The notes: a model not told the origin generated them from the letters alone. A stretch of DNA of 64,000 nt from Beggiatoa alba B18LD (GCF_000245015.1 NZ_JH600070.1:3823062-3887061), one strand, 5' to 3'; shown: positions 4,236-19,467, counted from the first letter of the stretch. Program-made: numbers and translations.

Positions 4236-5279
4236 CTATAACTTCGGTAAGGGTGGATTAATTAAAGGGGTAGGTTTGTTTGTGTGTTGGAGAACGCACG
4301 CGCTTATCGTGAGGATTCGCCCATTTAACCGAACAGAGCGAGCATCTAGGGGTTGAACTCGATGACCTTTTGCGAGTAAATCAACGAGGCGGCGAGATAT
4401 ACAAGTGGCTGACTCAGCGAAAATATAATTGTAATTACTGCCAAACCTAGACCCGCCCACGAGAATATATTCTTCTGATAGTGTTAATTTTTTCTCTATA
4501 CCCTCCGTTTTAGCCTGTTGTAGTTGTTCTTTAGCGGTTTTATCAACGACAACGTCACCACTTCCCAAGTAGCCAAAAGCGGAAGAAACCAGCCAAATAA
4601 TGAAGAAAATAAGGAAGATAAAAAGAAAGAGTTTGAAGGGCATTCTGGGCTTTACGGTATCCACGACGGTGGATTTATAGAGTTTAAATGCCTGTTTATC
4701 GAATTTAACCCGCTTACCGTATTCTTTATTGACGGGTTTTAGTTTGTCGTCAGAGGCGTAAACGCTGTAACGTTCAAGCCTTGAATAGGGTAAACCGAAA
4801 GGACGAACCAGCCGAAAATACGCCCCGCAGTGTTTTCTAATGTGGGTATCTAAAAGTTGGGCTGATTGGGTAATAAAATAAAAGTCATGTCCATCGTGTC
4901 GATGAGTCTGTAAATACTTTAAAAATTCAGAGGGGGGCTTGCGATAGTTACGTTCAGAGGGGAAAAAATGTTGAGCCTCATCCACCAAAAGAACCGCGCC
5001 AGCGGGTAGCCAGTCTCGAATATTGCCGTAGGAACTCTCTGAATAAACGACGGGAAAAGCCTGATTTTGATAAGCCACGACATCGCCAAGCCCATCAAAG
5101 CGGTGAATTTTTTCGTCTAATTCTAAAATATCAGGGTAAACTTCAAAAAATTCAGGGGTTAAATCGAAGTTTAAAAGATAAATAGGGCGTTTAGATTTGG
5201 CTAAGTCTTTGATAAGTGTACCAACAATATAATTGGTTTTTCCTGAACCCGCTAGACCCGCGATGATATGGACTGTCAT
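4236..5279 (-). CDS. zot: Zot-like filamentous-phage assembly ATPase (pI)
   Basis: 347 aa with an N-terminal P-loop (GLAGSGKT), a LLVDEAQHFF segment, HDGHDFYFITQ, and a central TM segment (FKLFLFIFLIFFIIWLV). The architecture matches M13 gene I / Zot family members. Confidence 0.75.
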   Translation of the reverse strand: MTVHIIAGLAGSGKTNYIVGTLIKDLAKSKRPIYLLNFDLTPEFFEVYPDILELDEKIHRFDGLGDVVAYQNQAFPVVYSESSYGNIRDWLPAGAVLLVDEAQHFFPSERNYRKPPSEFLKYLQTHRHDGHDFYFITQSAQLLDTHIRKHCGAYFRLVRPFGLPYSRLERYSVYASDDKLKPVNKEYGKRVKFDKQAFKLYKSTVVDTVKPRMPFKLFLFIFLIFFIIWLVSSAFGYLGSGDVVVDKTAKEQLQQAKTEGIEKKLTLSEEYILVGGSRFGSNYNYIFAESATCISRRLVDLLAKGHRVQPLDARSVRLNGRILTISACVLQHTNKPTPLINPPLPKL

Positions 5280-5605
5280 GGTGTTGGACTCGTTGGATTT
5301 TTAACGATAGACCATTTATAAGCGGATTTAACCACGTAGGCACTAGAGATTAAGGCTAAGTTAGTCATAACGCCTAAGTAGTCGAGCATTGCCGCCATAG
5401 AAATCAGTAAGCCCGCGTTATCGAGTTGATTTAAAGCGAGGTTAATTTTATCCATGACCATATCACTTAGGGCGTTAAATCCCTTGTAGGTTGCGATAGA
5501 TAGACCGAAGACGGTGAAGAATCGCATGATGAAGAAGTTGAATAAGCCTTCCCAAAGTTTCACGGTAAAGAGCTTATTAAATAGGGCGGCTAGTAACTCA
5601 CTCAT
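5276..5605 (-). CDS. Minor coat protein pVI-like (DUF2523-like)
   Basis: 109-aa hydrophobic protein immediately upstream of zot, overlapping it by 4 nt. Position and size match inovirus gene VI. Confidence 0.5.
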   Translation of the reverse strand: MSELLAALFNKLFTVKLWEGLFNFFIMRFFTVFGLSIATYKGFNALSDMVMDKINLALNQLDNAGLLISMAAMLDYLGVMTNLALISSAYVVKSAYKWSIVKNPTSPTP

Positions 5606-7617
5606 GATTTAAAGATAATTCCCTGAACGGTTAATATTGTGGAAATGTACAATAAAATTTTTAGGATTAATAACGTTGTACAAGCGTAAGAGAAATCGAT
5701 AACGACTTCACCGCCATACATAGGTATCTCGACTTTTTCACGGAGTGGGCAAGAGCCAGCGGAGAAGTTAGGGAGTTGAATTAAAGTAGAAACATCAATA
5801 ACGGTCGAGATTTTATCTTGTTCAAGTTTGTACTTTTCTATCTCGGTTTCTGGCTTAAAATCAGAGACTTTTAACGAGTCTTTGTAGGTTTTTTCTAGTC
5901 GTTCAATGGCTTCTTTAGTCGCACCGCTTGAACTTTCAAAGAGTTCTTTTAAGGTATCCGCGCGGAGTGCTGCTACAAGAGCGGCTGTTTGAGCGGCGAG
6001 ACCTGCTTCAATCGCGACGGTTTGGGCGAGTAACCCTGATTCTATTGCTAAAGTTTGTCCTGCCATAGCGGCTTTATCAGCTAACGCGGCGGCCCCAATA
6101 GCCCCGACTATTGCGGTTGTTGATAGTGTAATCGCTAGGCTATGGTCGACTTCATCGTTAAGCGTCTCTAAAAGCGTTTTAATGTCACCTAAAAGCGCGT
6201 GTGTCACCGTATCGCGGACGTTACAGGGGGGAGTGCCATCGATACCACACGGGAAGTTGTTAGAAACGCCCCCAGAGGAACAAGAGGATGTCGGGGAGGT
6301 AACGGGGTTTAAGTTGTAACGACAAAGTGTCGTGCCTGTTGAAACGCCTGATTTAACGTATTGGCAACCGTTCTGACAAATCGATGTATCTATAACGGTA
6401 TTGGGGTCTAATTCGCTACCCGTTGGAGTAACTGGACACGGTAAATCGAGCGTTGGTTTAGCGGTTTCATAGTCACACTCTTTCGGTTCTGTTGTTGCGC
6501 TGGCTTTAGAAAGGGGGTTAGTACAATATTGGTCAGCTTCACACCTGTCTAAAATCGGAATATTAGAGCCTGTAGGTTTAAAAAAACGGTTTAAGACGAC
6601 TTTATCTTGTTCATCTTCTTTAATAACGAAGCCGTTGGTTAATTCATCAGGAGCGACGACGTAGGAGCCGCCGTTGCACCCATTGCCCAAGTAGTTACAG
6701 ATAACCGCATCAGCGTCCTTTCCTTCACAATTTCCATCAAGCGCACCGCACCGCATGATACGGAATTCTTTATAAGTCATTTCCCAGTCATCAGGACAGA
6801 ATTTAACTGAACCCGATATTTTAGAATCTGATTGAGTGCAATCAGCCCCCGTACCATCATCATTATTATCATCAGGGTTATCAGGGTCATCATCATCATT
6901 ATTGTTGTTATCGTCGTCGTTATTACCCTCATCATAATCAGGCTCACAGGGGTAGCTATCACACACCATAGAGCACATGGCATCTTTGTATTTACAATCA
7001 CAGTTAGTGTACCAAGGAGCATTATCAATAACCTGATAATCAGGGGTACAAGAGCAATACGGCGCACCATTAGGATTTACAGAACTGTGAACCCCAATAA
7101 ACCCATTATTACAATCACGTTTATCAACACAACCCTCCTCGAAAAGCTGTTCATTGTAGGGAAGACTTTCACAGTAACGGGATGGAAAAGCGGTGGAAGC
7201 ATCACAGGTTTTTAATTTGTAACGACAAGCGGAATCAAAAACGGTCGGAGGGGGGACAGGCTCACAATAGGCTTCTGCATAAATGCCTTGATAGGTAAAT
7301 TGAGTATTTGCCTGCCAATTTAAAAAGGTTTGTCCAATATCAGATAGTGGAAAATTAGAAGGTTTAGGGGAACTAGAAAATTTTGTTGTCGTAGAGGCTT
7401 CTAAATAGTTAGGATTAATATGATTCTCTTGTAAACATGAGTATAAATAAGAGCCTAGCGTAAAATCTTTATTGGTGAAAATATGCTCACAGGTGTGATA
7501 AACACGAAATTCTTCTACTTTGGATTGACAAGCCGAAAAATTAGATTGCAAATCAGCACGAGCCAAACTAGCCCAAAAGAGGAAAAAAAGGAAGATTAGC
7601 AAGCGCATGATTTGCAA
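5602..7617 (-). CDS. pIII-like adsorption/minor coat protein
   Basis: 671 aa with a signal peptide (MQIMRLLIFLFFLFWASLARA), Cys-rich N-terminal domains, a D/N-rich low-complexity linker, and a C-terminal hydrophobic anchor. It lies between pVIII and pVI as in inoviruses. Confidence 0.55.
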   Translation of the reverse strand: MQIMRLLIFLFFLFWASLARADLQSNFSACQSKVEEFRVYHTCEHIFTNKDFTLGSYLYSCLQENHINPNYLEASTTTKFSSSPKPSNFPLSDIGQTFLNWQANTQFTYQGIYAEAYCEPVPPPTVFDSACRYKLKTCDASTAFPSRYCESLPYNEQLFEEGCVDKRDCNNGFIGVHSSVNPNGAPYCSCTPDYQVIDNAPWYTNCDCKYKDAMCSMVCDSYPCEPDYDEGNNDDDNNNNDDDDPDNPDDNNDDGTGADCTQSDSKISGSVKFCPDDWEMTYKEFRIMRCGALDGNCEGKDADAVICNYLGNGCNGGSYVVAPDELTNGFVIKEDEQDKVVLNRFFKPTGSNIPILDRCEADQYCTNPLSKASATTEPKECDYETAKPTLDLPCPVTPTGSELDPNTVIDTSICQNGCQYVKSGVSTGTTLCRYNLNPVTSPTSSCSSGGVSNNFPCGIDGTPPCNVRDTVTHALLGDIKTLLETLNDEVDHSLAITLSTTAIVGAIGAAALADKAAMAGQTLAIESGLLAQTVAIEAGLAAQTAALVAALRADTLKELFESSSGATKEAIERLEKTYKDSLKVSDFKPETEIEKYKLEQDKISTVIDVSTLIQLPNFSAGSCPLREKVEIPMYGGEVVIDFSYACTTLLILKILLYISTILTVQGIIFKS

Positions 7618-7628
7618 TGGTTAGTTAG

Positions 7629-7847
7629 TTACAGAGCACCACGAACATATTTAAATACGGCAATCACTGCCAATAAGGAAATAGCTGCAGTAGCAATCGA
7701 TACGATAGCAGGAGCACCTGCTTTTAATTGGTCAACAATATCGGTAACAGTGATATTCGCAACTAAGGCAGCGGCTTGTGCATCAGTAACCATAAATAGA
7801 ATGGGTAAGACAGTTAATAAAAATAAAAGTACACGTCTAACTTTCAT
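7629..7847 (-). CDS. Major coat protein pVIII
   Basis: 72 aa with a signal peptide ending AQA, an Ala-rich amphipathic helix, a hydrophobic core and a basic C-terminus KYVRGAL. This is the classic inovirus major coat layout. Confidence 0.65.
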   Translation of the reverse strand: MKVRRVLLFLLTVLPILFMVTDAQAAALVANITVTDIVDQLKAGAPAIVSIATAAISLLAVIAVFKYVRGAL

Positions 7848-7936
7848 AATAGTTTCCCTATTACTAAGAAAATGAAAACAATGGCAAACAATAAATATGA
7901 AGCCTCAATAATTTGATTAGCTTGTGCAATATCCAT
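7847..7936 (-). CDS. Small hydrophobic pVII/pIX-like minor coat protein (not in the ORF track)
   Basis: 29-codon ORF MDIAQANQIIEASYLLFAIVFIFLVIGKLL. Its ATG overlaps the stop of the upstream ORF (TAATG) and its TGA overlaps the pVIII ATG (ATGA). Confidence 0.35.
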
Positions 7937-8313
7937 TATTTACCCCGAACAAATGGCAACCCTAAAAGGAGAGCGGCCCCACAACTAAGCATTACCCCTA
8001 AATAAATAAAGGGATAAATGTGTTGTTCAAATGTTGCAGACTCAACGAAAACAGGCTCGACTAAGTCACCAAAGACAGAGGCATAAGCCACAAAGCCATA
8101 GGGTGCAGAGAGGGCATAAATACAGTTTTGTGTGTCTCTGTGTTCAGTGGCATAGAGGGAACAATAAGAAACGTCAAAAGTATTAAAGCGTTGAGTGCAA
8201 ATAGTAAAAAGTGCATTAGTCACTTGTTCATTAGTTAAACCACCCCGTACCAATGAACAGGCGGAAGCTGGTAGGGAAAACAAGAATAAAACAAGGATAA
8301 TGAAGGGTTTCAT
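7936..8313 (-). CDS. Hypothetical secreted/membrane phage protein
   Basis: 125 aa with a signal peptide, several Cys, and a hydrophobic C-terminus. It sits between the ssb-like and coat genes. Confidence 0.35.
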   Translation of the reverse strand: MKPFIILVLFLFSLPASACSLVRGGLTNEQVTNALFTICTQRFNTFDVSYCSLYATEHRDTQNCIYALSAPYGFVAYASVFGDLVEPVFVESATFEQHIYPFIYLGVMLSCGAALLLGLPFVRGK

Positions 8314-8717
8314 TAGGCAACTTTAGCGGGAATAGCGGGAGGAATAACCCCAGTAAATTTTTTATCGTCTTTGGGTACAACTTCATATTCTCGCTTAGGT
8401 TCTTCAGCTAAAGTGCGAAAATCAGAAGCGGAAAGTTGACGGATAAATTGCACAGACTCTAAAACGGAAACGGGAATAGCTTTTCCATTCTTGTCTTTTT
8501 TGGAGGAGTTGAAAAAGTCACAATTGGCTAAGAAGGGGACTTTATCAGCGTATTGAGAGACTAAGTTATATTCGCAATCACCCTCCATTGCTCCTTGAGC
8601 AAGTGCACGGTCAGAACCAACTTGAAAAAATTGTGCTTTAGACCATGTACGAACTTTGTCTTGTCCCGGTTCCTTGTCAAATTGCCCACCTTGAATTTTA
8701 AAAACGATTACTAACAT
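8313..8717 (-). CDS. Putative ssDNA-binding protein (gene V-like), called by position only
   Basis: 134-aa ORF directly downstream of the Rep gene and upstream of the coat genes. No motif is recognised. Confidence 0.3.
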   Translation of the reverse strand: MLVIVFKIQGGQFDKEPGQDKVRTWSKAQFFQVGSDRALAQGAMEGDCEYNLVSQYADKVPFLANCDFFNSSKKDKNGKAIPVSVLESVQFIRQLSASDFRTLAEEPKREYEVVPKDDKKFTGVIPPAIPAKVA

Positions 8718-8720
8718 GTC

Positions 8721-9857
8721 TTAACCCTCTAGTCTTGGTAAAAAGTAACCCGACGGAATAACCGCAGGTTTTATCGATAATTCATGACGACGTGCATAGT
8801 CCATTGATTGCGGGGTGTAGGGTGAAGCAACATCAACCCCGACAGTACGAAGAATTTCAGAGCGATGACGGTAAAAAGTGCGATTACTGGGCAATTTAGC
8901 CCCATGTGTCCAACGCAGATAAGTCAACCATGCAGGACGACTTAATTGATTAACAGAACTTAAGCTAGTGTCACGAATAACAACAGATGCAGATTCGGTA
9001 AAAACCTTATCTAATTCTTTAGGATACTCCATAATTGCACCCAAATAGCGAAGACCAGATTGCGTTAAATAGCGTTGTCTTAAACGTAGTTCATAACGTA
9101 ATACACCGTTATCCGTTAGATAGTTTAATAAATTCAAGTAATAAGGTTCTTTGCGTTTTAGTTCATTAACTTTGCGTTTAGCAAATTCAATTGCCTTGTT
9201 ATAAACCACGCCAGAACGGTATTTACTGGTTAAACCATAATTAACGGTTTCTATGGTGTCTGATGAGCCATTAATTTGAGTTCTCATTCTTGTAGGCTTT
9301 AACGAAGCCAGATAATGCAGATATTCTTCAGCAAGTTCAGGACTACCCAGCGCAAAATTTTGTGTTAAATCAATTCTTGATAAGGTTGCACCCGTCCACA
9401 CGCGCAATAAATGCAATTCCTTAGAACGTCGGTATCTCACTTGTCTAAAATAATCTTCACCCGCAGTAAACGGCGGTAATTCAAAGTCATTGACCAGCAA
9501 GTCATTTAATTTTTTAATGGTGTCAACGAAAGAATAATTAAAAACGTTATCGTGACGACCAAAGACCCCGACATTGCCAGAGACAGAAACCGTACAACCA
9601 TCAGAACGAATCATTAAGCGAGTATCATAACTACCTTCATGAACCTGATGTTTTTCAGTGTAATACTCAATATTGCCATCAGAATCTAAATAAACCACCA
9701 TACCCGAATTAATGACTTTTACAGAATTAAGCCCATGACGTTGGGAGATAGTGACCCAGTCGCAAAAGGGCTGAAACTGAATAGGCGTTAATTTAAGGGA
9801 TTCTTGTGTTTGCATCATCATGAATATACTTGTAACAAATGTGGATAACGGATTCAA
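8721..9857 (-). CDS. Rolling-circle replication initiation protein (pII / Rep_trans-like)
   Basis: 378 aa, first gene of the inovirus module. Its size and position match gene II, and its Tyr/Lys-rich segments resemble Rep_trans proteins. Confidence 0.5.
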   Translation of the reverse strand: MNPLSTFVTSIFMMMQTQESLKLTPIQFQPFCDWVTISQRHGLNSVKVINSGMVVYLDSDGNIEYYTEKHQVHEGSYDTRLMIRSDGCTVSVSGNVGVFGRHDNVFNYSFVDTIKKLNDLLVNDFELPPFTAGEDYFRQVRYRRSKELHLLRVWTGATLSRIDLTQNFALGSPELAEEYLHYLASLKPTRMRTQINGSSDTIETVNYGLTSKYRSGVVYNKAIEFAKRKVNELKRKEPYYLNLLNYLTDNGVLRYELRLRQRYLTQSGLRYLGAIMEYPKELDKVFTESASVVIRDTSLSSVNQLSRPAWLTYLRWTHGAKLPSNRTFYRHRSEILRTVGVDVASPYTPQSMDYARRHELSIKPAVIPSGYFLPRLEG

Positions 9858-9916
9858 TTAACTACTAAAAATTTGCCATTTTTGACGCTAACTTTACGTA
9901 TTACTAACACGTAAGA

Positions 9917-9990
9917 GGGGGGGGAGGGGGTACAAATGAAAGGGGGGCGGGGGTGATGACAAGCATCAAACCCCGCCCCCCTGTTTTTTA
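9917..9990 (+). promoter_or_regulatory. G-tract cluster (G7, G5, G6, G5) plus a 12-bp GC hairpin with a T-run. Candidate ori, regulatory element or bidirectional terminator.
   Basis: The sequence is gaGGGGGGGaGGGGGtacaaatgaaaGGGGGGcGGGGG. The hairpin ggggggcggggg / ccccgcccccc is followed by tgtttttt (9982-9989). Confidence 0.3.
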
Positions 9991-9996
9991 AAAAAT

Positions 9997-10356
9997 TTAT
10001 TGTCCAGCCCTTTGTCTTTGAATACGATGTAAAACTTCTTGAGAAGTTGTTACTTTGGGCTTATTGGTAGGCGCTTCTAAAACTTTTTGATTGCGAACAA
10101 CTTCACCTTTAACAGGTTTTTCTATTTGTTGCTGTTCACGCTCTCGATATTCACGTTCGATTTTTTTCCGCATGAAGATAGGCAACAGGTAAAAGAACGC
10201 GCCAAAAGGCATTAAGAACACAATGCAAAGTAGCCAAATATAACGTTGTCTAACAACAGCATGAATAGTGGCATAAATCGTTAAACCTACCAATAATAAA
10301 CTAGGCAAAATAAGGATATAAAAGAAAATAGAGTTAAAAAAAAGGTAGCCAGTCAT
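9997..10356 (-). CDS. Small membrane protein (two TM segments, basic/coiled C-tail)
   Basis: 119-aa ORF with hydrophobic N-terminal two thirds. It could be PLDc_N-like (weak). Confidence 0.4.
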   Translation of the reverse strand: MTGYLFFNSIFFYILILPSLLLVGLTIYATIHAVVRQRYIWLLCIVFLMPFGAFFYLLPIFMRKKIEREYREREQQQIEKPVKGEVVRNQKVLEAPTNKPKVTTSQEVLHRIQRQRAGQ

Positions 10357-10520
10357 TTAATTAACGCCTTAATAAACATAACTGATGGAATAGCAACATA
10401 AAAAATTAGGAAATAGATAAACATTACAAGCAGTAAGTAATAACTTCGCTTTGGATAATTAGGCTCTTCAGTCGGTTCATAACTTGGGTCATAAGAACGT
10501 TTTTTATCGGTAGTAGCCAT
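10353..10520 (-). CDS. Small membrane protein (55 aa), translationally coupled to the 9997-10356 gene
   Basis: ORF MATTDKKRSYDPSYEPTEEPNYPKRSYYLLLVMFIYFLIFYVAIPSVMFIKALIK with an ATGA overlap onto the downstream gene. Too short for the ORF track. Confidence 0.3.
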   Translation of the reverse strand: MATTDKKRSYDPSYEPTEEPNYPKRSYYLLLVMFIYFLIFYVAIPSVMFIKALIK

Positions 10521-10649
10521 TTTTTAACCTCATGTAATTATAAGACTATTCAATAGTTACATGAGTTTAATGATTTTTCAAGTTGCTTATATTATTATTC
10601 AGTATCTTTAAGTGCTGATTTATAGGTGTAATACATTGATTATAAAGGA

Positions 10650-10693
10650 TTCCCAAGCTGATAGCGTGGGTTCGATTCCCATCACCCGCTCCA
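10650..10693 (+). other. tRNA 3'-end fragment (T-arm, acceptor 3' strand, discriminator and CCA), an att-like remnant
   Basis: gtgggttcgattcccatcacccgctcca is a perfect T-arm plus cacccgc-t-CCA. No complementary 5' acceptor strand (gcgggtg) lies within 80 nt upstream. Confidence 0.5.
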
Positions 10694-10786: not shown

Positions 10787-11089
10787 TTATTCCTCTTCTT
10801 TTTCCCTTAAAAAAATTTCATAGTGAGTCTGTAATCGTTCTAATGCTAACGCCGTATGTTTTAGGTTTAGGTGTGCATAGCGTTTAACCATGCTTAACGT
10901 TTTATGTCCCAATATGGACGCTATCGTTAAATGGTTTTCTCCGTTCATTGCTAAGTAACTCGCCGCTGTATGTCTGAGGTCATGGAAACGGAAGTTTTCT
11001 ATATTTGCCCGTCTTACGGCTGTTCTGAACGCGCTAGAGATTAATATCGGTGTATTGGTTCTAATACTTTGGAATAGGTAGGCTTTATC
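10787..11089 (-). pseudogene. Truncated tyrosine recombinase (phage integrase), C-terminal catalytic ~100 codons only
   Basis: It translates to ...NIENFRFHDLRHTAASYLAMNG...LGHKTLSMVKRYAHL, carrying the HxLRH box and the KRYAH catalytic-Tyr box. The frame is closed by TAA immediately upstream and there is no start codon. Confidence 0.7.
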
Positions 11090-11655
11090 TAATGCTTGGG
11101 TTTAACGTTGTAAGTCCTTAGTTAAGAACTTTGAACGGACTCTTGAGAATGCTAACGCTAAACTGAAACTGTGTTTTATCAGACTCGTGATTAAACAACT
11201 CGCTTCTTTTTAAACATTTCAAATCGGTTCTATAAAACGATTTAATAACACATTGAGACAGCAAGTCAGTCGCTTAGTTCGCAAAACCTTATCCTTCTCT
11301 AAGAAATTGCAAAATCACGTAGGGGCTATCATTTTTTTCATTAATCATTACAACTCATCCTTACCTGTTTAGCACTACCAAAATTTATAGTGTTTTGTGA
11401 AAAAAATATAGTTGTGCGAAAATATGATAAAAATTAGTTTTTTAAGATGAATAAACGTTAACTTAGGTTGTAAGCGTTAGTAAAGTATTATAAAAACTTG
11501 GTGTTATAGATTTTAAAAAATATAATTTCATTGTTTTATACTTAAACATTAGACTTAATTATTTTAAAATTTAAAGTTTTTAATAAACGCATATTTTTTG
11601 ATTTTAAAAATTTTATTTGCGAGTTGTGATAATAAACAGAGACTGGAGACAAGTT

Positions 11656-12807
11656 ATGTATAGTCAATTAAACATAGTTGACTTGTTTTGTGGTTGTGGT
11701 GGATTTGGCTTAGGGGCTGAGTTAGCGGGATTTCATACAATCGCAGCTGTAGATATAGATTCAACATTGCAATCTGCTTATAAGTATAACTTTCCAAATA
11801 CTTATGTAATTAATGGTGATTTATCAAAAATGAGTCATAATTCATGGAGTTTTCTTAATAATCAAAATATTGATGTGGTAATTGGTGGCCCTCCTTGTCA
11901 AGGTTTTAGTAGAATGGGAATAGGTGATTTAAATGACCCTAGAAGAACATTAATTAATGATTTTTTTAGACATATAAATATTCTTCTGCCAAAGTTTTTT
12001 GTTATGGAAAATGTGGAAGGTTTATTAGATAAAAAACATTTTGAGGTGTTGAATCAGGCTATTGAAAGTTTAAATAAAAGATATAGGGTTTTACCCCCTT
12101 TTATAGTAAACGCCTCAGATTTTGGAGTACCTACTAAAAGAAAGCGGGTTTTTGTCATTGGTTATGATAAAAATACAGTAGAACCTATTGAAATAAACCT
12201 TTTTTCTGTACAAAATAAGCAGGTGACAGTACAGGTAACAGTAAAAGACGCGATTTCTGATTTACCCAGTCCCCTAAAAGAAAATAGTCATAAAACAGAG
12301 TTTGGTTGGAAAGCTTATAAAACATCGCAAAATTTATCTGACTATGCACAGCAAATGAGAAAAATGCCAGCTAAACATTTAGGTAATATTGAAGCACGGC
12401 AAAAGTTAGAACAGAATTTAACATCTGGACATTTTAATACACATCATATGAAAGTTGTTCAAGATCGTTATGTTGCTTTACAGCAAGGTGGGATAGATCA
12501 GATAAGCAAGTCAAAACGCCTAGAATGGAGTGGCTTATGTCCAACTTTACGGGCTGGTACTGGTTCAGATAGAGGTAGTTATCAAGCTGTTCGTCCAATT
12601 CATCCAGATGAACCTAGAGTTATTACTGTTCGAGAAGCAGCTAGATTACAGGGATTTCCCGACTGGTTTTGTTTTCATCCAACGAAATGGCATAGTTTCA
12701 GAATGATTGGTAATAGCGTTTCACCATTAGTCAGCTTTCATATTATGAGACTCATCAAAGCAAAGTTGACACAGGACTATATTAAATCAATTGAGGAAAT
12801 ATTTTGA
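11656..12807 (+). CDS. DNA (cytosine-5)-methyltransferase, Dcm family
   Basis: Motif I FCGCGGFGLG, motif IV GGPPCQGFS, motif VI ENVEG, motif X GNSVSP. A GGAG RBS lies 7 nt upstream of the ATG at 11656 (the ORF-track start at 11617 is probably too early). Very AT-rich. Confidence 0.85.
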   Translation: MYSQLNIVDLFCGCGGFGLGAELAGFHTIAAVDIDSTLQSAYKYNFPNTYVINGDLSKMSHNSWSFLNNQNIDVVIGGPPCQGFSRMGIGDLNDPRRTLINDFFRHINILLPKFFVMENVEGLLDKKHFEVLNQAIESLNKRYRVLPPFIVNASDFGVPTKRKRVFVIGYDKNTVEPIEINLFSVQNKQVTVQVTVKDAISDLPSPLKENSHKTEFGWKAYKTSQNLSDYAQQMRKMPAKHLGNIEARQKLEQNLTSGHFNTHHMKVVQDRYVALQQGGIDQISKSKRLEWSGLCPTLRAGTGSDRGSYQAVRPIHPDEPRVITVREAARLQGFPDWFCFHPTKWHSFRMIGNSVSPLVSFHIMRLIKAKLTQDYIKSIEEIF

Positions 12808-14594
12808 GTACAGAATTATTAGATACTATTTCAGTTCCTACTGGCATTGATAAAGAATTTATTGAGCGAATTTTAACAACAGATGTTGAATTGACTGATG
12901 CACTATTTGAGTTAATTGATAACTCAATTGATTCTGCTAGGAATGATATTGTTTCTACTACTGATTATCATAAAGATGAGTATGGCTTACCTAATGACTA
13001 TCACGAATATCAAATAGATTTAAAATTATCTAATAATGAGATTTCTATACTGGATAACTGTCAAGGTTTTTTTAGTGAGGAAAATTTATTAAATGATGGT
13101 GCATTTATAACGGGAAAACCATCTCGCCATAAGTATGGTATTGGCTCTTATGGCTTAGGTTTAAAACGTGCTTTACTCAAAGCTGGTTCAAAGTTTGAGC
13201 TAATTACAGATAACGGTAAATATGAATACAGAGCAGCGGCAGATAGTGCCTTATCAAACGAACAAAATTTGCAGTTTAAACGATATCCTACTACAGGAGA
13301 AAGAAAAACTTTATTTGTTATAAAAGATTTGAAATCAGAAACTAAATATCAGATAAAGGATATCTCATGGTGTGATAACCTAATAGAGCAAATATCAATT
13401 AGATATGCCATTTTTATAAAAAAAGGTCTCCAAATTAACCTGAAGATATGTACTAACAATATTGATACAGAAATAACTATAAAGCCACTAGTACCTAATC
13501 TAAGATCACCATCTACTAAAGATAGCAAAATACCGTATCGCTCTGAATCTTTGCCTTTCAAGCAGTTTAAAGCTTATTTTGATGTTGGTGTTCATGAGAA
13601 TTATAGATTTGCGGGTGAGTCTGATCATAATACGAGCTTGAATAAGAAATTAACTAAGTTTTTTGGTATCTATTATATTTGTAATGACCGCGTTATTGTT
13701 GATCGTAGTACATCACCAATATATGGTTTTTCTACATCAGTATTTCATTCTGAATATAATGGTTTCGTGTGTATCGTGCGTATGATTGCAGAAAACCCAT
13801 CAGATTTACCTTGGAATACAGATAAGACTGATGTTAAGCGAAATAGCCCTGATTTTCTCAAGTTAAAAAAGAAAGTAGAAGAGTTATCTAAAAATTATCG
13901 TGCAGATGCTAAAAAGGTCATTAATATTTGGAAAAATCTAAAAAAAGAAGAAAATATAACTGAGGATGAAAAAAGTACTAATTTCCATAAAGAAATTGGT
14001 TTACCCCTTAGTACCTCTCTTGAGTTTCAAGAAAATACACTACAGGAAGGAAACCCGTCTGTAACGGAAACTCAAAAAAAACCAACTAAGAAAAAACGTA
14101 ATATTCAGAGAAAACACACAAAAGACGAAGCAACATTATTGCCTAATAAATTTCCATCATCACCTAGTATGATATTAAACAACTTAATTATTGAAGGAAG
14201 AAGTTTAAAAATAAAGGAATTACCTCACACCTCCTGTATGTTATATAGAGGTTTATTTGAAACTGCCCTAAAGTATTTTATAAATAAGTCTAAAAATAAC
14301 CAAAAAGTACTAGATGCTCATAACTCTTCCATGCAAGAAGAGAAAAGAAGAAAACAAGACGTTGACGGTGAAATGATAAGAAAATGGCTACCAAATAATA
14401 AAGAGGTTTTCCCGCTTACACATAGAGGTGCTTTATATACAAGTATGAATAAGCTAATCAATCACTATCAAAAACTTAATGGGATAGTGCATGGAAATCA
14501 AGTTGTAACCGAAGTAGAAATAATAACAATTAGAAATGATACTCTTGAGTTACTTGAGTTTTTTGTGAGTTTTGAATTAAGTAAAGATGATTAG
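12804..14594 (+). CDS. GHKL-superfamily (MutL/MORC-like) ATPase with an uncharacterised Lys-rich C-terminal half
   Basis: Bergerat-fold motifs: N-box ELIDNSIDS, G1 LDNCQGF, G2 GIGSYGLGLK. An S5-like segment (YYICNDRVIV) follows. TTG start overlapping the MTase stop (TTGA). Confidence 0.6.
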   Translation: MSTELLDTISVPTGIDKEFIERILTTDVELTDALFELIDNSIDSARNDIVSTTDYHKDEYGLPNDYHEYQIDLKLSNNEISILDNCQGFFSEENLLNDGAFITGKPSRHKYGIGSYGLGLKRALLKAGSKFELITDNGKYEYRAAADSALSNEQNLQFKRYPTTGERKTLFVIKDLKSETKYQIKDISWCDNLIEQISIRYAIFIKKGLQINLKICTNNIDTEITIKPLVPNLRSPSTKDSKIPYRSESLPFKQFKAYFDVGVHENYRFAGESDHNTSLNKKLTKFFGIYYICNDRVIVDRSTSPIYGFSTSVFHSEYNGFVCIVRMIAENPSDLPWNTDKTDVKRNSPDFLKLKKKVEELSKNYRADAKKVINIWKNLKKEENITEDEKSTNFHKEIGLPLSTSLEFQENTLQEGNPSVTETQKKPTKKKRNIQRKHTKDEATLLPNKFPSSPSMILNNLIIEGRSLKIKELPHTSCMLYRGLFETALKYFINKSKNNQKVLDAHNSSMQEEKRRKQDVDGEMIRKWLPNNKEVFPLTHRGALYTSMNKLINHYQKLNGIVHGNQVVTEVEIITIRNDTLELLEFFVSFELSKDD

Positions 14595-14755
14595 GTGTTT
14601 TTTGTTGAGACTTACTTACTAAGTAGTAATTCACTAATTTTATTATCTCAATATTGTTTAAATCAAATATCTTTTATTCTTTACATAATCTGAATTTGAC
14701 AAATTTAATTTAAAAAATCTCACTGAACTTAGATAGGTTAGACGACATTAAAGAA

Positions 14756-14805: not shown

Positions 14806-15696
14806 TTAAAACCCCGCTTTCCCCAATAATCCCTTAATTTCAGGGTAGGCATAGACAGGGCCATTTTTGCACACGAATGTCCCGCCGATTTGGCAGTGTC
14901 CGCAGTGTCCGACAGCACATTGCATGTTGCGCTCCATGCTTAAGTAAATCGATTTTTCTAACATGCCTTTTTCTATCAAGTGCACGGTTGCGGATTGCAT
15001 CATGCCTTCAGGGCCGCACATCATGGCGATGGTGCGCTCGGAGCGGATTTCGACTTCTTCAATCACTTTAATTCTGGGGCTGACTTGCCAGTGCCAATTA
15101 ACTGACCCCGCTGTTGAGGCAACTAGAACTGTTGTATCAGGGAGGGTTTGCCATTGGCGGTAGTGGTCTTCCCAGATGAATTCGTCAACGTGTTTGACTT
15201 TTTGCACAATCGTCAGTTTGCCGAAGCGTTGGCGACGACGGAGCATGTAGTTAATCACGGAGACAACAGGGGCACAGCCTAACCCGCCTGAGATAATGAC
15301 AACGTCTTGCCCTTCTGCTTCTCGTAATGGCCAGCCTCGCCCAAAAGGGCCACGGATGCCGATGCGTTGCCCTGCTTTGAGTTGGGAAAAGCCTTTAGTG
15401 ACCCGTCCAACGCGGTTAATCGTATGTACGAGCAGGTCTTCATGTTCAGGGTCGGAGACGATGGAGATAGCAACCTCGCCCACGCCGTATAAGTAGAGCA
15501 TGTTGAATTGCCCAGGGTGGTAGGTGTAGTTTGCATGGGCTATCGGGTCGGTTAGGCGTAGGTGTAGGGTAAAAATCGTTTTTGATTCTTGGATAAATTT
15601 AACGATTTCCGCTTCTTGAGGAAAATATTGGTTGTCTAAGATGGTGTTGGCAAAGCTTTGTTGGGGCATGGTGGTTTCCTCCGTTTTTAGGCGCAA
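14806..15696 (-). CDS. [NiFe] hydrogenase gamma subunit (FAD/NAD(P)-binding oxidoreductase, HydG/AsrB-like)
   Basis: 296 aa with a ferredoxin-reductase-type fold and a C-terminal Cys cluster [17 protein letters not shown]. Last gene of the hydrogenase operon. Confidence 0.65.
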
Positions 15697-16805
15697 ATTG
15701 CGCTAACTTCTGCCGTGAAATCAATTCCAACGGGACACCATGTAATACAGCGTCCACAGCCAACACAGCCACTGCGTCCATATTGTTCGTGCCAACTGCC
15801 GAGTTTATGGGTCATCCATTGGCGGTAGCGGAAGGTCGTACTGTCGCGTAAAACGAAGCTGTGCATGTAGCTGTGTCCTGCGGTAAAACAGGAGTCCCAT
15901 TGTCGATAGTGTTCGCTGTGTGTGCCTGTGATGTCGGCTTGTTCGCCTTCACTGTGACAGAAGCAGGTAGGACAGACGGAGGTGCAGCTGGTACAGGATA
16001 AACAGCGTTTTGCGACTTCTTCCCAGTGGGGATGGTCTAAACGGCTGAAGAGGGTCGCTTGCAAATCGCGGGAAGGTAGTCGACGGGTTTGCATAGCTAT
16101 TGCGGTTTGGGTTTGTTGTTGGGCTTGTTGTTGTTGGGCTTCACTGACAGGCGTTTGTGGGAGTTCTGCAAGTAAAGCGCGTCCTTTTTCGCTTTTAAAG
16201 CGGAGAATAAAGCCGTCATCTAGTTCTGTTAGGGCGATGTCGTAGCCTGAGGTGACATTGACCCCATCGCCTGTGGAGTGACAGAAACAGGTATCAGCAC
16301 TGCGGGCGCAGTCAACACCAATGAGGAGCAGACTGCGTCGGCGTTTGCTGTAGTAGTTATCGGCATATTCTTTGTAACAGAAATGTTGGTCTTGCAGTTG
16401 TAAAGCGGCTAAATCGCAACCGCGTACCCCAATCACGGCAGTGGGTTTGGGGTTGGGTAAGGTTTCAACAAAGTTGAGTTTGCCTGTCGCGTCACGGCTG
16501 ACTGTCCAGAGGGTTTCGCGTGGGGCAAAAGTCAGCGGTTTGAGGGCTTGCGCTCCTGTTGCCCATGCAAAGTAACGGGGATTATCGTTGTGTTCTAGGC
16601 AGTAACGTCCTGCGCTTTGAATGTCTTGATAGCCACGTGGTAAAGCGTTGACTGCCTCAGTTGCATCAGCGGGAGCGGTATCAAAAACAATGGTATGGTC
16701 GCGTACTTGGGGGATAACGCATTGATAGCCCGCTTGTTGTAGGACTTTAAACAATAAATGCAGTTGGGTATGGGGTAAATAGATAAGTAAGTCTTGATTA
16801 CGCAT
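15687..16805 (-). CDS. [NiFe] hydrogenase beta subunit (Fe-S protein, HydB/AsrA-like)
   Basis: 372 aa with multiple Cys clusters: [16 protein letters not shown] and [12 protein letters not shown]. Confidence 0.65.
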
Positions 16806-17325
16806 GGGCGGAGTTCTCCTGAGAAGCTTGTATCTGATTCATGTCTATTGCTTGTAAATCAGTGTGTAGTGCTTCGATTAACAGTTCCATCGCTTGAGCA
16901 ACAGGGGGACTTAATGGGGCGTGTAGGGCGGTGGGCTGGCAGGTATTAATGTCGATGTCAATGCCGTAGAAACGTAGGTAGCGCGGTTGCCAACCAAGTT
17001 GTTTAGCAAGTTGCACAGTGTTTGCGACATCAAAGCCATGACTAGATAAATGGTTAGGTAGCTGACAAATGGCATCAACGCCTTGCCACTCTCTGCATGT
17101 ACCGATAGATAAGGCTTCGGAATGCAACGCATCAACGATAATAACGTGTTCCCTATCACGCAAAATTGGCAATAGTTCCCGACTGGGCGCGCTACATTGC
17201 ACATAATCGGCAAGGCTTGGCGCGATTTGTTCTAGGCGTTCAACCACAAACCAGCCCAGTTGGTCATCGCCAAACGGTGAACCAACCCCCACGACACAGA
17301 CCCTTGCTGTGTGTTCAGCTTGCAT
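16798..17325 (-). CDS. Hydrogenase maturation endopeptidase (HoxW/HycI family)
   Basis: 175 aa, VVGVGSPFGDDQLGW motif, directly downstream of the large subunit. Confidence 0.7.
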   Translation of the reverse strand: MQAEHTARVCVVGVGSPFGDDQLGWFVVERLEQIAPSLADYVQCSAPSRELLPILRDREHVIIVDALHSEALSIGTCREWQGVDAICQLPNHLSSHGFDVANTVQLAKQLGWQPRYLRFYGIDIDINTCQPTALHAPLSPPVAQAMELLIEALHTDLQAIDMNQIQASQENSAHA

Positions 17326-18661
17326 GGCGTGTTATATTCAATTTAAGAAAATGTGTTGCACAGGAAATGCACGGGTCATAATTACGCACAATCATTTCAG
17401 CCCGTAAACGCAATGCTTCATCGCTATGCTGTAAGCCCATTTCCTCCAATGAATCGCGCAAATCCTCTTCAATACGCATTTGATTCTGACTGGTTGGCGG
17501 AACAATCTTGCAAGAAATCACTTCCCCCCGTTCATTTAATTCCCAACGTTGCCACAACATCCCACGTGGGGCTTCTGTACAACCATAGCCCACCCCAGCG
17601 CGGGGCGTAATATCAACATAAGGACGTTCAGGCACTTGATAATTTTCTAAAATCCGTAAGGCTTCCAACAAAGCAAAATGCACCTCAACCGCCCGCGCGA
17701 CAATGCTATGGAAAACGTTTTGACTCGGAAAACGAACCGCTGTTTGCTCCACATTAAAACGCACCGCAGCGGGCAACTGTGCATAATTCAAATTCACCCG
17801 CGCCAAAGGGCCCACTAAATAAGACTGCTCATTGCCTTGAGCATTACGTAAAGTAGAATGCAATGCCGTCGAATGCGGGACATGTAACTCAGTGAAATAC
17901 TGCTCATAATCCGCAATTGCGATATCTAACCCATCACTAGACACTAACCGCCCTTCGTTAAACGGATACTCTTGCGCGTGACGATTACAAACCGTTGTAA
18001 ATGACTGATGATAATCAGGTAATGCCAACGATGCCGTCCAACGGACTAAGGCTTCTGCATCGGGCAAGGCTTCTAAAATCTTCTGTTTTAACGCCGACAT
18101 CTGCGCAACAGTTGGCGCGTGATAAAAACCACCCACCCGCACCCCAACAGGATGCACCGACCGCCCGCCCAATAAACGAATAATATCATTACCAATATGT
18201 TGCAAGCGTAACCCACGTTTTAACGGCTCGCCATACTGCCCCGCCATCTCTAACGCACTTTTAAAGCCTAAAAAATCAGGCAAGGCTAACAAATGAATAT
18301 GCAAATTATGACTTTCTAACCACTCCCCACAATACAACAAACGGCGCATTTCCCGCGCCCAAGGCGAGATATTCACCTGAAAAATTGACTCAATCGCATG
18401 AACCGCACTCATCTGATACGCAACGGGACAAATCCCACAAATTCGCGCCACAATATCAAGCACCTGCTCAAATGTTCGCCCCTCTAAAAACTTCTCAAAA
18501 TAACGCGGTGGCTCAAAAATCCGCAATTTTAAATCCGTAATTTTGCCATCCTTCACCACCAAATCGAGACCCCCCTCCCCCTCTACTCGAGTTAAAGCAG
18601 GCACGGTAATGGTTAAACTGCGCTGACTGGTCGAAACGGCTGAAAAAGTAGAATCACTCAT
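17315..18661 (-). CDS. [NiFe] hydrogenase large (alpha) subunit
   Basis: 448 aa with an N-terminal RICGICPVAY (RxCGxC) and a C-terminal DPCISCATH (DPCxxCxxH) nickel-site motif. Confidence 0.8.
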   Translation of the reverse strand: MSDSTFSAVSTSQRSLTITVPALTRVEGEGGLDLVVKDGKITDLKLRIFEPPRYFEKFLEGRTFEQVLDIVARICGICPVAYQMSAVHAIESIFQVNISPWAREMRRLLYCGEWLESHNLHIHLLALPDFLGFKSALEMAGQYGEPLKRGLRLQHIGNDIIRLLGGRSVHPVGVRVGGFYHAPTVAQMSALKQKILEALPDAEALVRWTASLALPDYHQSFTTVCNRHAQEYPFNEGRLVSSDGLDIAIADYEQYFTELHVPHSTALHSTLRNAQGNEQSYLVGPLARVNLNYAQLPAAVRFNVEQTAVRFPSQNVFHSIVARAVEVHFALLEALRILENYQVPERPYVDITPRAGVGYGCTEAPRGMLWQRWELNERGEVISCKIVPPTSQNQMRIEEDLRDSLEEMGLQHSDEALRLRAEMIVRNYDPCISCATHFLKLNITRHAS

Positions 18662-19467
18662 AAATTCTTAGCCTCCTGAGTGGCTCGCGCAAACGCGGGA
18701 GATTGATTATTAAACAACGCAAACCGCTGAGAAATTACCGATGGACTCACTCCAAGCAGCTGAAACTGCTGGATTAATGCCTGCGTATTCACATTCTCCG
18801 CAGGCCCATAACATGCATAACAATCCCGTGACTGATGCGGACACAACACCCCGCACCCCGTGCGCGTTACCGCCCCCATACAAGGCAATTGCTGTGTCAC
18901 CATCACACACGCCTTACCCGACCGCTTACACTCCGCGCATAACTTATCTTGGTCACGCGGAGGCTCTACCCCAAACAACAACGCTCGAATCGCACTTAAC
19001 AACTGAAAACTATTAATCGGACAACCCTGTAACTCAAAATCCACTCGCACATGCTGGGCTAAAGACGTAGCCGTTGCCAACGACTCAATCGCCTCAGGAT
19101 GCTGATAAACGGCACGAGTCCATGCAGGCACATCCTGCCCATTCCGCAACGCCTGAATCCCACCAGCAATTGCACACGCACCGATAGCGATTAAATAGCG
19201 ACTATTCTGACGCACAGCTTTAATCCGCTCTGCCTCCTCAGGTGTAGAAATACTCCCTTCTACAAAGGCAATATCGACTGCTCGTTCAGGCTGATTCGCC
19301 CCAGCCTCCACAAAATGCACAATATCGACCAACTCAGTGAGTTTAATCAACGTTTCTCCCAAATTTAAAAACGCCAACTGACAACCATCACAGGAACTAA
19401 ACTTATGCACTGCAACCGTTGGTCGCTCATACTGAGACTGCAACCTCGTCATGACACTCATTGTCAC
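18658..19467 (-). CDS. [NiFe] hydrogenase small (delta) subunit
   Basis: 269 aa. SSCDGCQ in the N-terminal part plus further Cys ligands. First gene of the operon. Confidence 0.7.
   Translation of the reverse strand: MTMSVMTRLQSQYERPTVAVHKFSSCDGCQLAFLNLGETLIKLTELVDIVHFVEAGANQPERAVDIAFVEGSISTPEEAERIKAVRQNSRYLIAIGACAIAGGIQALRNGQDVPAWTRAVYQHPEAIESLATATSLAQHVRVDFELQGCPINSFQLLSAIRALLFGVEPPRDQDKLCAECKRSGKACVMVTQQLPCMGAVTRTGCGVLCPHQSRDCYACYGPAENVNTQALIQQFQLLGVSPSVISQRFALFNNQSPAFARATQEAKNL

Follow-up and report, generated by a model that had tools for sequence, protein, structure and literature searches.

ATPases of the MORC and paraMORC type were described by Iyer et al. in 2008 from restriction-modification (R-M) operons that also hold cytosine methylases and Vsr, and were noted to be recruited occasionally to repair (PMC2292703). 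In the same year, Orlowski and Bujnicki listed restriction endonucleases of REBASE, confirmed or putative, with an N-terminal GHKL ATPase, among them R.HgiDII, whose C terminus was left unassigned, and R.NmeAIP, which carries a Ymh domain (PMC2441816). Fusions of paraMORC ATPases to Ymh HEPN domains near R-M genes were reported by Anantharaman et al. in 2013, who proposed that they act in the manner of PrrC and RloC (PMC3710099). This paraMORC-HEPN class is a computational prediction, with no functionally tested member in the literature searched. Here we analyzed a stretch of 64,000 nucleotides (nt) from Beggiatoa alba B18LD (GCF_000245015.1, NZ_JH600070.1:3823062-3887061), referred to as the window, in which the gene for a C5 cytosine DNA methyltransferase is followed by a gene for a 596-amino-acid (aa) protein. 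The pair fits the predicted paraMORC-HEPN/R-M class and the GHKL-type putative restriction enzymes of REBASE, and we judge the chances to be about even that the two genes make up a restriction-like defence module, complete in itself and horizontally mobile, that works through methylase marking, a DNA clamp and a HEPN effector. An earlier note on this DNA had proposed the pairing as a candidate uncharacterised defence or restriction module; the association itself is not new, as paraMORC-HEPN fusions and GHKL putative restriction endonucleases were already described in the three papers above. What differs from the predicted class is the presence of another, noncanonical HEPN family at the C terminus, while the existence of such a module is unsurprising to the specialist.

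The pair shares with the paraMORC-Ymh class the GHKL and S5 module, a C-terminal HEPN fold, the adjacent cytosine methylase, in some cases Vsr, and a distribution that is patchy and mobile. Ymh is borne by orthologues of its ATPase module (37-42% identity over aa 1-370) beside a methylase of the same family (locus L014, proteins P0192-P0214). The difference lies in the HEPN family, which in the window gives no Ymh match and lacks the arginine of the canonical Rx4-6H motif, and instead resembles DUF4145 and the C terminus of PD-Lambda-5_A. R.NmeAIP is set apart by its Hypoth_Ymh C terminus, which is absent from the window protein but present in orthologues of the ATPase module. R.HgiDII appears similar by description, having an N-terminal GHKL domain, a C terminus that could not be assigned in 2008 and a gene located beside a 5-methylcytosine (m5C) methylase, M.HgiDII, that acts on GTCGAC (PMC5867850). 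No retrieved relative carried that name, and the comparison is one of descriptions only.

Another close system, which is experimentally validated, is PD-lambda-5, a two-gene anti-phage system of an Escherichia coli prophage that gives broad protection, includes a protein labelled by its authors only as a methyltransferase, and was described as a compacted system combining R-M with abortive infection (Vassallo et al. 2022, PMC9519451). Both systems comprise a methyltransferase and a protein with a homologous C-terminal region of ~150 aa, and both are carried on mobile elements. The homology is reciprocal in that a profile search started from the window protein's C-terminal domain retrieved PD-Lambda-5_A.

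The methylase, the ATPase and the C-terminal domain

The first gene was shown by its profile matches and motifs to encode a predicted C5 DNA methyltransferase of the Dcm type. The translation matched Pfam DNA_methylase PF00145 (1.1e-68, 232.5 bits, cut-off 22), TIGR00675 dcm (1.9e-54, 185.5 bits, cut-off 100.65) and PADLOC MTase_II (3e-105), and it aligned over its full length with the solved prophage C5 methyltransferase of PDB entry 3g7u (4.8e-96). The motifs I (DLFCGCGG), IV (GGPPCQGFS), VI (MENVEG, containing ENV), VIII (KRKRVFVIGY), IX (REAARLQGFP) and X (IGNSVSP, containing GNSV) were all located. In PADLOC, matches were obtained to 64 families of the methyltransferase type; the 25 listed are of the MTase_II, DruM and DrmMII types and do not include PD-Lambda-5_B. 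An alternative start is a TTG at 11617.

The second gene was shown to encode a paraMORC-type GHKL ATPase with an S5 transducer, translationally coupled to the methylase. Its TTG start (12804) overlaps the TGA stop of the methylase (12805-12807) by 4 nt, TTGA, and a Shine-Dalgarno-like GAGGAA lies 7 nt 5' of the TTG; read directly, the junction is ...GAGGAAATATTTTGA. Both open reading frames (ORFs) and the TTGA overlap described in the earlier note were confirmed.

The Bergerat motifs that the note had pointed out are present at aa 36-44 (ELIDNSIDS), aa 84-89 (DNCQGF) and aa 112-121 (GIGSYGLGLK), giving as residues of the ATP site E36 and N40 of the N-box, D84-x-x-x-G88 of G1, and G112-G119 of G2. 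This assignment was supported by a match to Pfam HATPase_c_3 (PF13589; 8e-10, 39.3 bits, cut-off 25). An AlphaFold2 model built with 32 homologues had a mean predicted local distance difference test score (pLDDT) of 81, and a Foldseek search against the PDB aligned its first ~400 residues with GHKL-transducer modules, those of SMCHD1, GyrB 43K and Hsp90 being at the top (E ~1e-12), with alignments of about 390-430 columns. As these alignments extend through the transducer, the S5-like segment of the note was substantiated. In alignment A3, which covers 23 distant relatives, D39, N40, D43, D84, G88, G114 and G119 of the ATP site are invariant, as are R296 (NDR296), P336 and K341 (PWNTxK341T) of the transducer; K341 and the key ATP-site residues are invariant in homologue alignment A1 as well. 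The stalk and linker that follow are variable in length and unconserved in alignment A1, and aa 404-440 have a pLDDT of <50. In the homologue from Acinetobacter sp. ANC 5054 (L018, ~7100-7350), the linker contains at least seven tandem GADTESGTDA decapeptides, pointing to free variation of this segment. MutL families were absent from the Pfam and NCBIfam scans of the 596-aa protein, and no MutL structure occurred among the 50 Foldseek matches listed. A degraded MutL paralogue was ruled out: the gene is intact and conserved, has no MutL domains and ends in HEPN.

In the C-terminal half, aa 441-594 form a confident HEPN fold in the model, an up-down bundle of four helices in which an insert separates helix 2 from helix 3. 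Because this region folds as HEPN, a domain of a nuclease superfamily lies within the ATPase gene. E486-x3-K490 in helix 2 and the NxxxH element at the end of helix 3 (L558-N559-G-x-x-H563) match the placement of the HEPN catalytic elements (model; PMC3710099). The earlier note had described the last ~260 aa as Lys-rich with no recognisable domain, which holds for aa ~399-440 with respect to lysine but not for the HEPN-folded remainder. Its statement that no nuclease adjoins the pair was likewise correct for HNH, PD-(D/E)xK, PLD and Vsr, none of which was found, and was incorrect insofar as the ATPase gene itself contains the HEPN domain.

Residue conservation was counted over 134 proteins having the C-terminal domain, 130 of which were aligned at positions 559, 563 and 577. 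R482 is present in all 134 and E486 in 133, while position 490 is K or R in 85. H563 is present in all 130 aligned proteins, and N559 and R577 in 127 each.

A relationship to PD-lambda-5 emerged from PADLOC, where aa 397-575 matched the C terminus of PD-Lambda-5_A (PDLC04013, profile positions 277-423 of 440, E 3e-07). When a profile of the C-terminal domain was searched exhaustively against 1.84 billion representative proteins, only 101 matches were returned. Most were proteins of 560-620 aa with the GHKL-HEPN architecture, and one set comprised PD-Lambda-5_A members of 430-500 aa (e.g., P0178, 4.7e-136 to PDLC04013). R482, E486 and, where aligned, N or D at 559 and H563 are kept in the PD-Lambda-5_A proteins also. 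A search of the domain against a word-indexed protein database gave two fragments only. One of these (P0094) is the 162-aa C-terminal HEPN ORF of a split homologue in Pasteurella testudinis, the N-terminal part of which is a 442-aa ORF (P0074); the split represents either a frameshifted pseudogene or a natural split version.

The pair is a unit conserved across phyla in mobile-element cargo positions

About 90 full- or part-length homologues of the 596-aa protein were retrieved. Those bearing a species name belong to Vibrio, Aeromonas, Serratia, Yersinia, Enterobacter and other genera, and their only annotation is "ATP-binding protein". A scan at one genome per species yielded 64 loci, in which homologues with a tblastn E of at most 1e-40 were counted as close. 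A C5 methyltransferase 42-62% identical to that of the window was found by tblastn within 3.3 kb at all 40 close-homologue loci, and at 36 of them it lies directly upstream on the same strand. These loci belong to Gamma-, Beta- and Alphaproteobacteria, delta-proteobacterial lineages, Bacteroidota, Verrucomicrobiota and Acidobacteriota. Chance adjacency of the two genes was ruled out by this linkage, and the proposal of a horizontally mobile module of a MORC-like ATPase and a methylase was borne out. The ATPase is less conserved (26-42% identity) than the methylase, in which even the variable region for target recognition shows moderate conservation within the family.

The closest relative (L073, 82% identical) consists of the bare pair between pgm and tsaD with the same 4-nt overlap, and clustering of the ORFs in the flanks detected no third gene common to all loci. 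The suggestion of an incomplete R-M system is unlikely because the two-gene unit itself recurs in conserved form. With regard to what could have undone the defence reading, the neighbourhoods of the homologues almost always include the methylase, the C terminus corresponds to no housekeeping domain, and an intact gene is present both in the window and in almost every relative.

At 13 loci, other C termini are combined with the ATPase module (31-42% identical over aa 1-370) and a methylase of the same family. One of them matches the HEPN family Hypoth_Ymh of Pfam and shows the canonical motif RNPKAH, and the other 12 belong to three unannotated helical types, each with an Rxx[LF]E helix and NxxxH. 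Orthologues of the Ymh type are abundant in metagenomes. Such exchange of the C terminus among orthologous ATPases is the pattern of effector domains in conflict systems.

The relatives, ~340 when a broad N-terminal profile search is included, are named "ATP-binding protein", "hypothetical" or "TIGR02391 family", and none is named as a restriction enzyme. A Vsr mismatch endonuclease gene adjoins the pair in ~12 of 43 related loci, for example L008 (7765-8247, minus strand), L030 (7672-8106) and L081 (9701-10087). At 20 of the 43 loci, a shorter GHKL ATPase (~440-480 aa) and a PF20553 "putative O-methyltransferase" (~320 aa) occur on either side and in either orientation, examples being L001 (4362-6729), L070 (the Pseudomonas Pf phage PfAC20, 280-3711) and L089-L092. 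In PfAC20 and several viral contigs, this shorter module accompanies a C5 methyltransferase with no separate GHKL-HEPN gene detected, and it may be an alternative or extra restriction partner on one methylase. Searches of the window for Vsr, a second GHKL paralogue and PF20553 found none of them.

The mobile contexts were varied. In Vibrio fluvialis, the pair is cargo of a Tn7-like element. In Yersinia, an island next to ssrA carries it as the first cargo behind the integrase, and in E. coli it is likewise first after the integrase, in tRNA-Asn and ssrA islands with MobQ and TraD genes. Of 5426 complete genomes of E. coli, 209 have a methylase with ~66% DNA identity to that of Yersinia (L004); in the two E. 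coli loci that were inspected, it is followed by an ATPase homologue (36-37% identity over aa 1-371) that ends in one of the alternative C-terminal types. Fragments of an integrase pseudogene lie just upstream of the methylase in E. coli L071 (5192-5561) and L072 (5645-5778), and the integrase fragment of the window is also upstream of the methylase, there on the opposite strand. A cargo site close to the integrase may thus have undergone insertion or recombination repeatedly. Among 17 IMG/VR viral contigs with a gene for an ATPase relative, the pair was further present in 7, and in several cases near a contig end. Searches by tblastn gave no match among plasmids and one among phages, a shorter GHKL paralogue in PfAC20. 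There, a cassette of the related GHKL gene, PF20553 and a C5 methyltransferase occupies the end of the phage, and because of this terminal position such cassettes may be inovirus cargo.

Setting of the pair in the Beggiatoa window

The two ORFs occupy the most AT-rich stretch of the window, and the 596-aa protein is 100% identical to BegalDRAFT_3198. The GC content is 0.28-0.33 over positions 11250-14750, compared to ~0.49 for the adjacent hydrogenase genes and ~0.41 for the whole window, in agreement with the earlier description of the genes as far more AT-rich than the hydrogenase genes beside them. The "tRNA fragment" of that description is indeed a fragment, but its identity as a tRNA was not upheld. 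It is a 40-nt acceptor and T-arm end, read directly as GGGTTCGATTCCCATCACCCGCTCCA, that is best matched as the 3' end of a transfer-messenger RNA (tmRNA) at a score under the Rfam gathering score, and ARAGORN reported no tRNA and no complete tRNA or tmRNA gene in the window. It is a probable att remnant of an island targeting ssrA or a tRNA gene. The truncated integrase was recovered as a remnant whose aa 5-29 match positions 146-170 of the 172 in the Phage_integrase profile, under the cut-off. The two remnants together fit the ssrA/tRNA-Asn island type. No direct repeats bounding the island were found by a scan of the window. Promoter and terminator scans gave no more sites than shuffled sequence, and no promoter was located in the leader of the methylase. 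The coordinates of all features are collected in Table 1.

Table 1. Features of the methylase-ATPase locus and its flanks, in window coordinates
Feature	Position	Strand	Basis or context
Zot	4236-5279	-	inovirus-like prophage
DUF2523	5276-5605	-	inovirus-like prophage
671-aa ORF without Pfam match	5602-7617	-	inovirus-like prophage
G2P/CRI replication protein	8721-9857	-	inovirus-like prophage
tRNA-like 3'-end fragment, best matched as tmRNA 3' end	10644-10683	+	Rfam RF00023, E=0.01, 14.9 bits
Tyrosine recombinase (integrase) C-terminal remnant	10787-10948	-	Pfam Phage_integrase, E=0.003
Noncoding AT-rich leader 5' of methylase, GC ~0.28	10949-11655		composition
C5 cytosine DNA methyltransferase (Dcm type), 383 aa	11656-12807	+	PF00145, PADLOC MTase_II, 3g7u
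Translational-coupling junction	12791-12807	+	GAGGAA Shine-Dalgarno-like element, TTG start, overlapping TGA stop
GHKL ATPase-HEPN protein, 596 aa	12804-14594	+	ORF
GHKL (Bergerat-fold) ATPase domain, aa 1-205	12804-13418	+	PF13589, AlphaFold2 model, Foldseek
S5-fold transducer domain, aa 206-345	13419-13838	+	structure matches through GyrB/SMCHD1 transducer
Helical stalk (aa 349-398) and Lys-rich disordered linker (aa 399-440)	13848-14123	+	AlphaFold2 secondary structure
HEPN-fold domain, aa 441-596, and stop codon	14124-14594	+	AlphaFold2 model
Predicted site residues of HEPN-fold domain	R482, E486-x3-K490 (helix 2), L558-N559-x3-H563 (helix 3 end), R577-N578 (helix 4)		model
FAD/NAD oxidoreductase	14806-15696	-	hydrogenase-type cluster
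4Fe-4S protein	15687-16805	-	hydrogenase-type cluster
Maturation protease-like ORF	16798-17325	-	motif reading
[NiFe] large-subunit-like ORF	17315-18661	-	motif reading
[NiFe] small-subunit-like ORF	18658-19467	-	motif reading

On the upstream side, an inovirus-like (filamentous) prophage on the minus strand (4236-10520) stops close to the tmRNA-like fragment. On the downstream side, the island is immediately adjoined by a hydrogenase-type cluster, also on the minus strand (14806-19467), beyond which another AT-rich stretch (GC ~0.31) is located at 19.3-20.5 kb.

Proposed mechanism, alternatives and significance

Of the three readings offered in the earlier note, methylation-coupled, ATP-dependent defence with a C-terminal effector gave the best fit. 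This defence reading draws on the domain architecture, the methylase linkage, the exchange of C termini, the mobile settings and the published predictions of such modules, and on a C-terminal family that is nearly confined to the GHKL-HEPN architecture and PD-Lambda-5_A. HEPN nucleases generally act as dimers. In the mechanism that we propose, the methylase would mark host DNA at its target sites, and a dimerising DNA clamp formed by the GHKL and S5 domains, as in other engines of this type, would engage unmarked DNA, be it by itself or through the methylase acting as its specificity subunit. Dimerisation of the N termini, driven by ATP, would then pair two HEPN domains into an active nuclease site composed of H563, N559, E486, R482 and R577. 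The substrate would most likely be RNA, following HEPN precedent, and its cleavage would lead to growth arrest or abortive infection, while cleavage of DNA is possible. By the same logic the pair may be addictive to its host, which would aid its persistence on mobile elements. A comparable layout is known from Shedu type I-D/paraMORC3 (e.g., VcSduA), in which, within one polypeptide, an N-terminal GHKL domain and a clamp-like middle precede a C-terminal effector of a nuclease superfamily, and whose anti-phage activity needs both ATPase and nuclease residues (PMC12137116). Its effector, however, is a PD-(D/E)xK DUF4263 DNase rather than HEPN, it has no partner methylase, and the PADLOC Shedu models gave no match to the window protein.

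Several observations weigh against this defence reading. At position 558, where the canonical Rx4-6H motif has its arginine, all members carry Leu, Met or Ile, and because Arg never occurs there, the domain sits with the HEPN families in which the His is kept and the Arg lost, such as c2405 and Parep1 (PMC3710099). PrrC and RNase L need the HEPN Arg for activity (PMC3710099), and some Arg-less HEPN domains, those of sacsin, Roquin and MtlR, only bind or dimerise. Two other invariant arginines could stand in for the missing one. At the sequence level, searches of the C-terminal half against Pfam, NCBIfam and the PDB gave nothing significant. DUF4145 (PF13643), a HEPN family, gave weak matches in 11 of 21 relatives, all under the cut-off; the best scored 22.5 bits (cut-off 23.1), and the matches covered mainly profile positions 3-60 of 88, largely helix 2. 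An hhalign comparison of the C-terminal alignment with the Ymh domains of the paralogues returned a probability of 0.2%, from which it was concluded that a link to Ymh is absent at the sequence level despite the common fold. The likeness to PD-Lambda-5_A is confined to the C-terminal domain, as its N-terminal ~270 aa are unrelated to GHKL and gave no significant Pfam match and no PDB sequence match. In the ATPase, ~90% of the homologues have Asp at the site of the catalytic acid, which lies four positions ahead of N40, whereas the window (12909-12911) and its closest relative have Glu36. Asp as the catalytic acid is unusual among GHKL ATPases. Finally, no experimental data on the family were found in the literature searched for defence by GHKL or MORC proteins with a methylase, and the trigger by unmethylated DNA, the interaction of the two proteins and the expression of the pair in B. 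alba are assumptions.

Among the alternatives, the one that survives best, though it is unlikely, is a genuine R-M system resembling Type II, whose GHKL protein would be a site-specific DNA endonuclease of the REBASE GHKL type with a C-terminal DNase. The methylase-first, translationally coupled order is typical of R-M operons, the moderately conserved variable region of the methylase is compatible with a shared target site, and Ymh-tailed orthologues of the ATPase were found; R.HgiDII and R.NmeAIP are, moreover, counted among confirmed or putative Type II restriction endonucleases (PMC2441816). However, the only domain outside the ATPase module is HEPN, with no PD-(D/E)xK, HNH, PLD or GIY-YIG fold, and the characterised HEPN members are RNases (PMC3710099). 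No PADLOC restriction endonuclease model matched, the names of the relatives include no restriction enzyme, and the HgiDII site GTCGAC is not depleted in the window (7 observed versus 6.2 expected).

The resemblance to PrrC and RloC raises a second alternative, that of a guard whose latent RNase is kept silent by the methylase, or else by some unlinked R-M system, and is switched on by a phage anti-restriction factor. Those proteins also combine an NTPase with a following HEPN-type RNase, are linked to DNA-modification systems and act as latent suicidal effectors (PMC3710099). A function of this kind was proposed for the paraMORC-Ymh fusions near R-M genes (PMC3710099), and the interpretation of PD-lambda-5 as R-M plus abortive infection is in keeping with it. 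PrrC and RloC differ from the window protein in having an ABC-type ATPase rather than GHKL, linkage to a complete Type I R-M system, the canonical Arg and His, and a phage-peptide trigger. No restriction enzyme stands beside the pair in the window or at most loci, and the near-obligate association with a single methylase family, more conserved than the ATPase, better suits self-marking. A guard is thus quite unlikely.

That no member retains the canonical Arg, and that SMCHD1, a chromatin-silencing GHKL protein, ranks as the best structural match of the ATPase module, would suit silencing without a nuclease. In this alternative, incoming unmethylated DNA would be compacted or blocked by a MORC-like clamp, while the HEPN-like domain would do no more than dimerise or bind nucleic acid. 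MORC and SMCHD1, which act in silencing, and sacsin are eukaryotic GHKL-S5 proteins, and sacsin joins this module, as Hsp90-like repeats, to a C-terminal HEPN domain (PMC3710099). They are nevertheless distant (10-17% identity), have other domain contexts and biology, and lack an operonic methylase. The near-absolute conservation of H563, N559, E486, R482 and R577 looks like that of an active site, beyond the needs of a scaffold, and relatives carry at the same position a Ymh HEPN with the full RNxxxH. We therefore regard silencing of this type as very unlikely.

MutL stimulates Vsr, and the Vsr genes beside the pair at some related loci would have a role if the protein were a MutL-like ATPase aiding very-short-patch repair of T:G mismatches at 5-methylcytosines. 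This repair-like reading, to which the occasional repair recruitment of such ATPases (PMC2292703) also lends itself, is weak and highly improbable, given that Vsr is lacking in the window and in about three quarters of related loci and accompanies many Dcm-type methylases whatever the partner, that the protein has no MutL C-terminal domain and finds its best structures in SMCHD1, GyrB and Hsp90, and that the swappable HEPN-type C termini, the mobile cargo position and the PD-lambda-5 link indicate conflict.

For the defence reading preferred here, the locus offers a minimal, clean two-gene version, with R482, E486, N559, H563 and R577 as the candidate active site and E36, N40 and K341 as the ATPase residues. 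Because E. coli, Yersinia, Vibrio and Acinetobacter, as well as phage contigs, have related pairs, the system should be tractable in standard hosts, and it provides a compact, widespread entry point to how GHKL/MORC-type ATPases restrict foreign nucleic acid. PD-Lambda-5_A, an orphan subunit of a validated defence system, is at the same time tied to a wider domain family. PADLOC 2.0.0 (2023) recognises the methylase through generic methyltransferase models and gives for the ATPase only the weak match to its C-terminal domain, and such loci could for this reason be scored as solitary methylases.

A more specific form of the mechanism, in which a MORC-like clamp reads the methylation status, an Arg-less HEPN domain delivers the output by cutting RNA, and HEPN effectors are interchangeable on a common chassis, is put forward tentatively and is doubtful as a whole. 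If true, a DNA mark would license immunity and RNA cleavage would execute it, which would constitute a new restriction class. It would also provide the first mechanism for the prokaryotic relatives of MORC and SMCHD1, would place the coupling of these ATPases to methylation before the eukaryotes, and would inform the ancestry of methylation-linked MORC/SMCHD1 silencing.

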